Shown: positions 4,584-5,083 of the stretch, piece by piece
Layout of the letters: each line of letters starts with the position of its first letter
How positions within the stretch are numbered: the stretch's first letter is position 1
Virus record (IMG/VR): IMGVR_UViG_2681813228_000014
Reading direction: 5' to 3' (one strand)
DNA: 11,623 nt
Source of the DNA: a virus
Lineage: Duplodnaviria; Heunggongvirae; Uroviricota; Caudoviricetes
Notes under the pieces: model-generated
The model's database searches: none
Told to the model about the DNA's origin: nothing
What the model saw: the letters and a program-made list of their open reading frames with translations, nothing else
Position numbers and translations under genes: made by a program

Positions 4584-4610
4584 GAAATTGGCCTCAGATT
4601 AATGTTAAGC
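4540..4610 (+). ncRNA. sok: Expected position of a Sok-like antisense RNA (approximate)
   Basis: Inferred only from hok/sok architecture, in which the antisense RNA overlaps the mok start region. No promoter or terminator was confidently identified. Confidence 0.2.
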
Positions 4611-5083
4611 GTCTTGCCGGACGCGTAATGTTAACTGGGGCTTTTCTCTATCTGCCTTTTGGTGTTCATGCCTGAGGCAGATAGCCTCAAGCACCCGCAG
4701 CAATTCTAACTATCCAATAGATCAATGCCAACTTCTTTTCCTGCAACATCTCTCATCATAAGTGACCCAAATTCATCCAATCAGCACAAAAGAAACATTT
4801 AAAGCGTGAATGCTACCGAACGTTCATTTCAATTACATCGTTTTGATTTTTAACAGTTTTCACCTCAACAAATCAAATGGCATTAGCATTCATCATGGAA
4901 GAAAGACTGATAAAAATGATCATTTTCAATGACTTATGATCACACCGGGTATTGCCAAGTCATTCCTTTTACGCCAGGATACCCACAAGTGAGTAGTCGA
5001 GGAGAGTTTGCCAATTTTTGCGATATAAATTTCAATGTCCGAAGAACCATTAATTGTTAATTGATTCTGTATAAGGTATTAAC

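Follow-up and report, generated by a model that had tools for sequence, protein, structure and literature searches.

The 500 bp at positions 4584-5083 of an 11,623-nucleotide stretch of viral DNA (IMG/VR record IMGVR_UViG_2681813228_000014, hereafter the window) run from the start of mok, in a hok/mok/sok toxin-antitoxin locus, to a 365-aa beta-family gene (hereafter beta). The window belongs to a prophage of the Rac/lambdoid type in Shiga-toxin-type E. coli. We are confident that these 500 bp are the junction of two modules. The left one, 4584-4733, is the predicted 5′ control region of an intact hok/mok/sok type I toxin-antitoxin locus belonging to the prophage backbone. The right one, 4734-5083, is an AT-rich, non-coding spacer that lies upstream of beta on the plus strand and belongs to a mobile cargo. 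An earlier note, made from the letters of this DNA, had described the whole 500 bp as an AT-rich leader upstream of a cassette. The cassette consists of beta and its 192-aa partner gene. The description fits 4734-5083, which has a GC content of 35.1% and moves with the cassette, but not 4584-4733, which has a GC content of 46% and belongs to hok/sok; the whole cargo (4734-6904) has 37.8% and the window 46.1%. The note was right that no open reading frame (ORF) of at least 60 aa lies inside 4584-5083; a 70-aa mok-like ORF extends up to 4583. The repeats that it flagged are already-known hok/sok elements, which segregate with hok and not with the cassette. The AT-rich remainder is an ordinary, non-conserved cargo spacer, presumably with a weak promoter.

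The flagged repeats are hok and Sok RNA elements

Scanning the window with Rfam, we found a match to RF01794 on the minus strand at 4521-4696, which scored 119.8 bits (gathering score 59; E 1.9e-27) and covered the full model, positions 1-157. The model is named 'sok', yet the match here is the hok-sense leader, and it terminates at the hok AUG (4526). The same match recurs in two other hok loci of our collection (L003 and L008). We thus place the 5′ untranslated leader of the hok mRNA between a +1 at 4696 and the AUG at 4526. Directly downstream of the leader lies the hok toxin ORF, which matches Pfam PF01848 (HOK_GEF; E 8.9e-23) and is named HokD by PGAP. The HOK_GEF match is carried by the mok-like ORF (4371-4583, 70 aa), which is in the hok frame; the equivalent ORF is annotated as mokW in phage 933W and as mok in Rac-SA53. 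The mok-like start codon (4583-4581) and the Shine-Dalgarno sequence GAGG (4595-4592), 8 nt upstream of it, occupy 4581-4595 on the minus strand, within the region covered by Sok.

The first flagged repeat, CTATCTGCC (4648-4656) and GGCAGATAG (4676-4684), consists of exact 9-bp reverse complements, as the earlier note had it, and is embedded in longer imperfect arms (4637-4657 and 4675-4695). Taken alone, this inverted repeat is marginal and not compelling, because 7.5% of shuffles of the region also contain a perfect 9-bp inverted repeat whose loop is 40 nt or shorter. In the folded minus-strand RNA, the repeat makes the stem of a 5′-terminal hairpin of the hok mRNA (4637-4696); the first 60 nt fold at -26.8 kcal/mol (z-score -4.8), and none of 200 shuffles folds as well. 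The same hairpin holds the tac element GGGUGCUUGAGG (4685-4696) at the extreme 5′ end, which is complementary over 12 nt, with one bulged base, to the fbi element at 4309-4321 downstream of hok.

Upstream of this leader we find the hok promoter on the minus strand (4731-4703), with the -35 hexamer TTGGCA (4731-4726), a 17-nt spacer and the -10 hexamer TAGAAT (4708-4703). It matches the consensus at 10/12 positions and is the only sigma-70-like site of at least 9/12 on either strand between 4300 and 5200. Six nucleotides (4697-4702) separate the -10 hexamer from position 1 of the RF01794 model. This -10 is common to all hok loci, and the -35 is common only to the KilA-N/BstA-type loci. A GATC at 4720-4723 falls inside the spacer of the hok promoter.

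The second flagged repeat belongs to the antisense RNA. The record of phage 933W annotates a 'sokW antisense RNA' at positions 1490-1560 of its locus, which transfers to window positions 4576-4646 on the plus strand through a 96.7%-identical match, thereby placing a Sok-like RNA, the type I hok/sok antitoxin, there. The direct repeat TAATGTTAA is present at 4600-4608 and 4626-4634, flanking GCGTC...GACGC (4609-4624), as had been described. When the plus-strand RNA is folded, the two copies pair with each other as the arms of a hairpin, through two G-U wobbles in Sok that are C-A mismatches on the hok strand. GCGTC...GACGC makes the tip, and the tract CUUUUCUCU follows the hairpin. Its predicted energy is -28.2 to -30.2 kcal/mol (z-score -5.0 to -6.7), and 0 of 200 shuffles were as stable. 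Therefore, the 'direct repeat' is the Sok terminator hairpin (4590-4642, plus strand). In comparison with the Rfam consensus, this hairpin has a 16-nt G+C-rich insertion at its tip.

Reading the sequence just outside the 500 bp, we found a probable Sok promoter at 4540-4568 on the plus strand, with TTGCCT (4540-4545), a 17-nt spacer and TAACCT (4563-4568). Its end lies 7 nt ahead of the transferred start of sokW, and it is assigned by position only; this is the position that we take the sok promoter to have in plasmid R1.

The proposed mechanism would be that of the family. On the minus strand, TTGGCA-17-TAGAAT would drive the hok mRNA from a start at about 4696, and the first 60 nt of this RNA would fold into the tac-containing hairpin that had been flagged as a 9-bp inverted repeat. 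A Sok RNA of about 70 nt (plus strand, about 4576-4646) would be transcribed from a promoter inside mok. The 5′ tail of Sok would cover the mok ribosome-binding site, and its body would be the long terminator hairpin with the TAATGTTAA arms. Pairing with Sok would block translation of mok and hok and lead to cleavage by RNase III, as is established in this family for plasmid R1. The mechanism of hok/mok/sok has been reviewed (PMC9841398).

Known relatives agree with this assignment. In the Stx2 phage 933W, the stretch equivalent to 4587-4708 is 96.7% identical, and mokW, hokW and SokW are annotated at matching positions; unlike the window, 933W has a different backbone upstream of the hok -10 and no beta/cII cargo. 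Over the full 500 bp, the identity to Rac-SA53 is 99.8%, and that record names hok, mok, 'beta' and a 'CII phage-like protein'. Neither record has anything annotated in the equivalent of 4647-5083. The locus also resembles hok/mok/sok (parB) of plasmid R1 in its Hok/Gef toxin with an overlapping mok, its RF01794-type hok leader, its 5′ tac hairpin with a complementary 3′ fbi, and its antisense Sok, which is promoted from within mok and ends in a terminator hairpin. It differs in lying in a prophage and not on a plasmid.

E. coli O121 RM8352 is 99.9-100% identical to the window, apart from an IS3 element that the O121 strains carry and the window lacks. An O111:H8 strain and strain 2013C-3264 have this prophage without the IS3. 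All O121 genomes that are 100% identical to the window carry this 1258-bp element at 4561-4563 (positions 1765-3022 of our locus L002), with a 3-bp GCT duplication. It lies between the putative -35 and -10 of Sok and splits the hok ORF from its own promoter and leader. In the IS3-bearing O121 strains hok/sok is probably inactivated; the window is the IS-free form.

A variable cargo slot upstream of the hok promoter

We compared the 500 bp with 5426 complete E. coli genomes. The query matched 4221 of them, and nearly all matches stop at query base 125, which is window position 4708 in the hok -10. The hok/sok elements occur in these 4221 genomes whether or not the cassette is present. The rest of the 500 bp is found in only 92-93 genomes, the same ones that have beta and the 192-aa cII-like gene. 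The spacer itself (4734-5083) is present in 93 of the 5426, always with both genes.

The earlier note had taken the repeats for features of the cassette leader. The comparisons do not bear this out. A BL21-type prophage (L004) has the same hok/sok locus with both sets of repeats and no cargo, a DUF977 gene following about 80 bp further on; there, as here, the repeats are structural elements of the hok mRNA and the Sok RNA. As for their presence in homologous loci, the repeats are conserved with hok and not with the cassette, since diverged cassettes lack hok (see below). The idea that the AT-rich part was horizontally acquired is upheld: it is mobile cargo, found in 93 of the 5426 genomes, and in other prophages the same slot holds other cargo.

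Where one module ends and the next begins can be read from relatives with a different content. In the type represented by strain Z1002, the sequence is common up to 4732, and a KilA-N gene comes next. On the right, the backbone common with the KilA-N-type phage resumes at 6905, so the cargo junction lies at or before this position. With the limits on the left, the cargo is therefore about 4734-6904. A G+C-rich hairpin, CCGCCCTTTCGGGCGG, stands at this right junction (6905-6920), with no T-tract after it on either strand.

Anchoring 149 viral contigs on the hok leader, we found dozens of types of DNA to its right. As judged from this variation, Rac/lambdoid prophages have a slot directly upstream of the hok promoter in which the cargo varies (about 4709-6904 in the window). 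Across the window and the loci L003, L004, L069, L073, L084, L113, L125 and L154, the slot contains beta/cII, a BstA-like KilA-N gene together with a gene for 167 aa, PDC-S42, a Ser/Thr kinase and its 238-aa partner, one of several unknowns, or no cargo at all. Several of the types encode defense-type proteins on the plus strand, namely a BstA-like protein (encoded by the KilA-N gene), PDC-S42, or a PD-T4-6/Stk2-like kinase and its partner. Each cargo provides its own -35-like hexamer for the hok promoter. The AT-rich spacer would have arrived in this slot, upstream of the hok promoter, as part of a cargo module of about 2.2 kb (about 4734-6904). In the Qin prophage of K-12, relBE adjoins hokD.

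The cargo is a gop-less homologue of the P4 beta/cII pair

The 365-aa gene (5084-6181, plus strand) matches Pfam PF14350 (Beta_protein; E 3.8e-52) and the PADLOC model PD-Lambda-2_C (E 1.8e-41), and its product matches P4 beta by tblastn (E 5e-7, 23% identity). The 192-aa gene (6141-6719, minus strand) is a P4 cII-like gene of the sce7726 family; it matches NCBIfam NF033832 (E 1.7e-56) and the PADLOC model 'cll' (E 2.4e-28), and its product matches P4 cII (tblastn E 7e-15, 28% identity). Homologues of this protein carry PF26915 (Phage_P4_cII). The two genes are convergent and overlap by 41 bp (6141-6181).

We looked for gop, which P4 has directly upstream of beta. Performing tblastn with P4 Gop, we obtained no match in the spacer, which has no ORF of at least 60 aa. 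The PADLOC gop model hit none of the spacer ORFs, even at an E limit of 10, while P4 Gop as the positive control gave 4.8e-70. The spacer ORFs had no other PADLOC match either. By its protein matches, the cassette is homologous to the beta/cII pair of phage P4 and has no gop; we did not file it as a full Gop-beta-cII member because gop was not found upstream of beta.

The likeness to P4 gop-beta-cII (Gop_beta_cll in DefenseFinder and PADLOC) lies in the beta and cII homologues, in their convergent layout, and in the location of the cassette in cargo hotspots of mobile elements. The differences are several. P4 has gop (133 aa, 402 bp) where the window has 350 bp of ORF-free DNA; P4 cII has 264 aa against 192 aa here; P4 beta and cII are separated by an annotated terminator, whereas the genes here overlap by 41 bp; and the proteins share only 23-28% identity with those of P4. 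P4 gop-beta-cII protects against lambda and P1, and gop/beta has been proposed to be a toxin-antitoxin pair (PMC9122126). The cassette also resembles PD-lambda-2 in that the 365-aa protein matches the component C models (1.8e-41); PD-lambda-2C has been described as a relative of a P4 phage antitoxin and as necessary for defense (PMC9519451; Vassallo et al. 2022). However, PD-lambda-2 has its own HigB-like A and Xre-peptidase B components, neither of which is present here, and has no cII-like partner.

We took beta homologues at 47-73% amino acid identity from genomes, viral contigs and metagenomes, which gave 18 distinct upstream regions. In diverged loci with gene calls, the partner is always a convergent cII-like gene of 162-193 aa. 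The 3′ overlap of the two genes is found in every homologue with gene calls (including L191-L200) and is mostly 41 bp, in a few cases 38-44 bp. This constancy suggests antisense or transcriptional-interference coupling. The diverged cassettes sit in the P2 gpA-portal hotspot, in P4-like elements, next to a resolvase, in a lysis-terminase interval, and in another lambdoid phage, and the two-gene gop-less form is widespread in Enterobacterales. There is no hok within 1.5-3 kb of any diverged cassette examined, so these cassettes are without the hok/sok RNA elements. The same result led us to reject hok as a functional stand-in for gop.

The AT-rich spacer upstream of beta

The spacer has no Rfam match, and we found no gene in it. 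The 20-codon ORF described earlier, MALAFIMEERLIKMIIFNDL*, is indeed present at 4877-4939 and has no Shine-Dalgarno sequence. It is probably not a gene: an ORF of this kind is at chance level, it has no family match, and the C311 locus, 93% identical, has ATA in place of its ATG. A 40-aa ORF (4810-4932) is open in C311 and differs there by four non-synonymous changes and one synonymous change. Listing the ORFs in 10 upstream regions, we rejected a conserved small ORF or membrane peptide; no plus-strand ORF of the spacer has a Shine-Dalgarno sequence, a hydrophobic segment or similarity across loci. A decayed gop was likewise rejected with the negative tblastn and PADLOC searches given above. 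As for a structured leader RNA or small RNA, the spacer folds with a z-score of +0.72, 76 of 100 shuffles fold as well, and there was no Rfam match at E values up to 5. No terminator was found in the spacer.

A leader conserved with the cassette was also rejected. Each diverged cassette has about 190-445 gene-free bp upstream of beta, and none of the 18 upstream regions has DNA similarity to the spacer or a common promoter position. Since they share neither, the spacer is, by these comparisons, not a conserved functional element of the beta/cII family.

The earlier note had held that the 500 bp must contain the promoters of both divergent units. The hok half of this stands (TTGGCA-17-TAGAAT). 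The promoter of the 365-aa gene is placed here by elimination only, as no plus-strand sigma-70 match of at least 9/12 exists between 4300 and 5200. By that elimination, beta must be transcribed from somewhere in 4734-5083, because upstream of it the plus strand has no transcription unit other than Sok, and Sok terminates in a strong hairpin. The one plus-strand candidate upstream of the start codon with a -10 of at least 4/6 is TAAAAA, an 18-nt spacer and TATGAT (4911-4940), a putative weak promoter that is not conserved in L003; as a weak guess, transcription from it might start at about 4947. The spacer would thus most likely hold a weak or factor-dependent promoter and the 5′ untranslated region of beta. 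It has no gene, structured RNA or family-wide conserved element.

Several points weigh against this two-module reading. Expression of Sok and activity of hok are read from homology. The best plus-strand candidate upstream of the beta start codon reaches only 8/12, and some Sok transcripts may read through into the spacer. Moreover, the spacer is not fully cargo-specific, as 4734-4908 is weakly similar to the leader of the BstA-type cargo (z-score 3.35, reached by 1 of 500 shuffles). Because of this residual similarity and a 28-bp block common to both leaders (described below), part of the spacer may be older slot DNA with some function.

The heptamer TTTCAAT occurs three times in the spacer (4827, 4924 and 5030), about 100 bp apart, and the window has one further copy on the same strand. 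The BstA-type leader likewise has three copies.

The base composition of the spacer raised the question of silencing, which the earlier note had connected with long AT-rich leaders. The AT-rich spacer could nucleate H-NS filaments, and the cargo would then stay silent until counter-silencing or prophage induction. We consider this xenogeneic silencing possible though rather unlikely. The low GC content (35.1% for 4734-5083 and 37.8% for 4734-6904, in a window of 46.1%) is necessary for it and far from sufficient; the cargo is horizontally mobile, and low basal expression would agree with the lack of a strong sigma-70 promoter. As a lead only, GCGATATAAATT at 5020-5031 resembles the reported H-NS nucleation motif, tCGATAAATT. 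However, the argument rests on base composition, and AT-richness is common to most prophage morons and does not discriminate. The flagged repeats are all unrelated to H-NS. Prophage defense cargo is usually expressed in the lysogen, and P4 gop-beta-cII protects from its native promoter (PMC9122126).

A 28-bp block common to two cargo leaders

The spacer contains a 28-bp block, GATAAAAATGATCATTTTCAATGACTTA (4909-4936), that it has in common with the leader of the BstA-like cargo. The block includes the palindrome AAAATGATCATTTT and a 19-mer resembling a Fur box (4909-4927). It is 26/28 identical to its counterpart in L003 (E 2e-6 to 3e-7), which lies equally far from hok. Compared side by side, the beta-type and BstA-type leaders have the hok -35 region (4689-4732) in common, then 175 bp of weak collinearity, and then the block. 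None of the other cargo types of the slot has the block. We rejected the block as a terminal repeat of the cargo, as the window has no second copy at up to 3 mismatches. A common regulator of the block encoded by the cargo was rejected as well, since the cII-like protein is unrelated to the 167-aa partner found with the BstA-like gene. Reading the sequence of the block, we found no match to the IHF consensus.

Two TGATCA sequences lie 20 bp apart (Dam GATC at 4918-4921 and 4938-4941). One is at the centre of the palindrome, and the other overlaps the candidate -10, in TATGATC.

The block might be the operator of a host factor, most plausibly a Fur box, or else a Dam-sensitive site made of the central GATC and the adjacent TATGATC; we give this a low probability. 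In the first case, Fur-Fe2+ would repress beta (and the BstA-like gene elsewhere), and iron limitation would derepress it. This proposal, which we also regard as unlikely, would refine the two-module reading and would not replace it. Counting identities to the Fur consensus GATAATGATAATCATTATC, not weight-matrix scores, we found 15/19 at 4909-4927 on both strands; every other site in the 11.6-kb window scores lower, and only 0.6-0.75% of shuffles of the leader reach this level. In our own reading, the site also contains two 7-1-7 units 6 bp apart (12/14 and 10/14). The two leaders have diverged except for a single conserved block, and the match falls exactly on it. Of the candidate promoters, only one has a good -10 (TATGAT), and the block spans its -35 and spacer. 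Among the 18 upstream regions of beta homologues, four have a match with a shuffle P below 0.05, one of them a 16/19 match at -67 in Dickeya. A confirmed Fur site is known in a lambdoid prophage (nohA in Qin; PMC2189734). Like the nohA-type boxes, the site here is a 19-bp AT-rich palindrome (15/19) with overlapping units 6 bp apart over a candidate promoter (PMC2189734).

Other observations speak against Fur. The match was noticed post hoc, after other factors had been tried, and the consensus is itself an AT-rich palindrome in AT-rich DNA. Sites predicted from the consensus can fail to bind, as at exbD and ygaC (PMC2189734). The box overlaps only the weak 8/12 candidate promoter. Unlike Fur boxes, the palindrome here is centred on GATC and has even symmetry, and it is absent from most homologous cassettes, 14 of the 18 upstream regions having no such box. 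The BstA-type copy is weaker (14/19), and the putative -10 is not conserved there. No biological link between the cassette and iron is known. A literature search returned nothing relevant on sce7726, on Rac-SA53, or on a Fur box with KilA.

A Fur-like box also stands before another cargo of the slot. In L084, about 254 bp rightward of the hok-leader anchor, the cargo encodes a 257-aa protein with a sub-threshold match to the PF00756 esterase family. It follows a 15/19 Fur-like box, GTAAACGATAATCAATATC, which runs directly into TTGACA.

The same data could be explained without any function, with the spacer as a recombination scar left over from successive cargo swaps and the block as a relic of common ancestry. 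The common left junction (4689-4732), the weak collinearity (z-score 3.35) and the block at equal offset make a pattern of descent and decay, and there is no conservation in other contexts. Yet a 93%-identical block within near-random flanks argues for selection on the block, and beta still requires a promoter somewhere in the spacer. We hold a functionless scar to be improbable as well.

Finally, the spacer lies in the gop position and might encode a hidden third component, be it a decayed gop, a tiny toxin peptide, or a regulatory or toxic RNA. The 402-bp gop directly upstream of P4 beta against a 350-bp spacer here, the 190-445 gene-free bp at the same place in every diverged beta/cII cassette, and the 40-aa ORF open in C311 point that way, but this is very improbable in view of the negative P4 Gop and PADLOC searches, the plus-strand ORFs without Shine-Dalgarno sequence, membrane-like segment or cross-locus conservation, the four non-synonymous changes against one synonymous in the 40-aa ORF, the fold at z +0.72 without Rfam match or terminator, and upstream DNA that cannot be aligned among cassettes.

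Other features of the window

The early phage genes of the window are on the minus strand (cro-like, ydaT/U/V, DUF1627, DUF977 and a methyltransferase). They are followed by the 192-aa sce7726/cII-like gene (6141-6719), hok (4371-4526), a phd/doc-like pair, and nin and Q-like genes. The 365-aa beta gene (5084-6181) is the sole gene on the opposite strand to these. The region directly downstream of hok (3476-4159, minus strand) encodes a Fic/Doc-family toxin (164 aa, PF02661, E 7.5e-12) preceded by a 59-aa ORF; the two would be a second toxin-antitoxin pair beside hok/sok. The Rfam scan also matched the anti-GcvB small RNA AgvB on the plus strand (181-242) and, on the minus strand, STnc100 (243-435), a tRNA (522-581), C4 antisense RNA (1356-1439), isrK (1465-1541) and the c4 a1b1 target (1502-1554).

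Implications

Our analysis is mainly a correction. The conspicuous repeats of this leader are textbook RNA elements of hok/sok and no regulatory features of the neighboring cassette. Given that defense-type cargo is swapped in the slot upstream of the hok promoter, this slot is a convenient place to look for new systems. The beta/cII pair is widespread without the gop toxin of the P4 prototype, which raises the question of its effector. The Fur-like block is a testable lead on the regulation of such cargo; if it is indeed a Fur or Dam site, expression of prophage anti-phage cargo would be tied to iron availability or to the state of replication.

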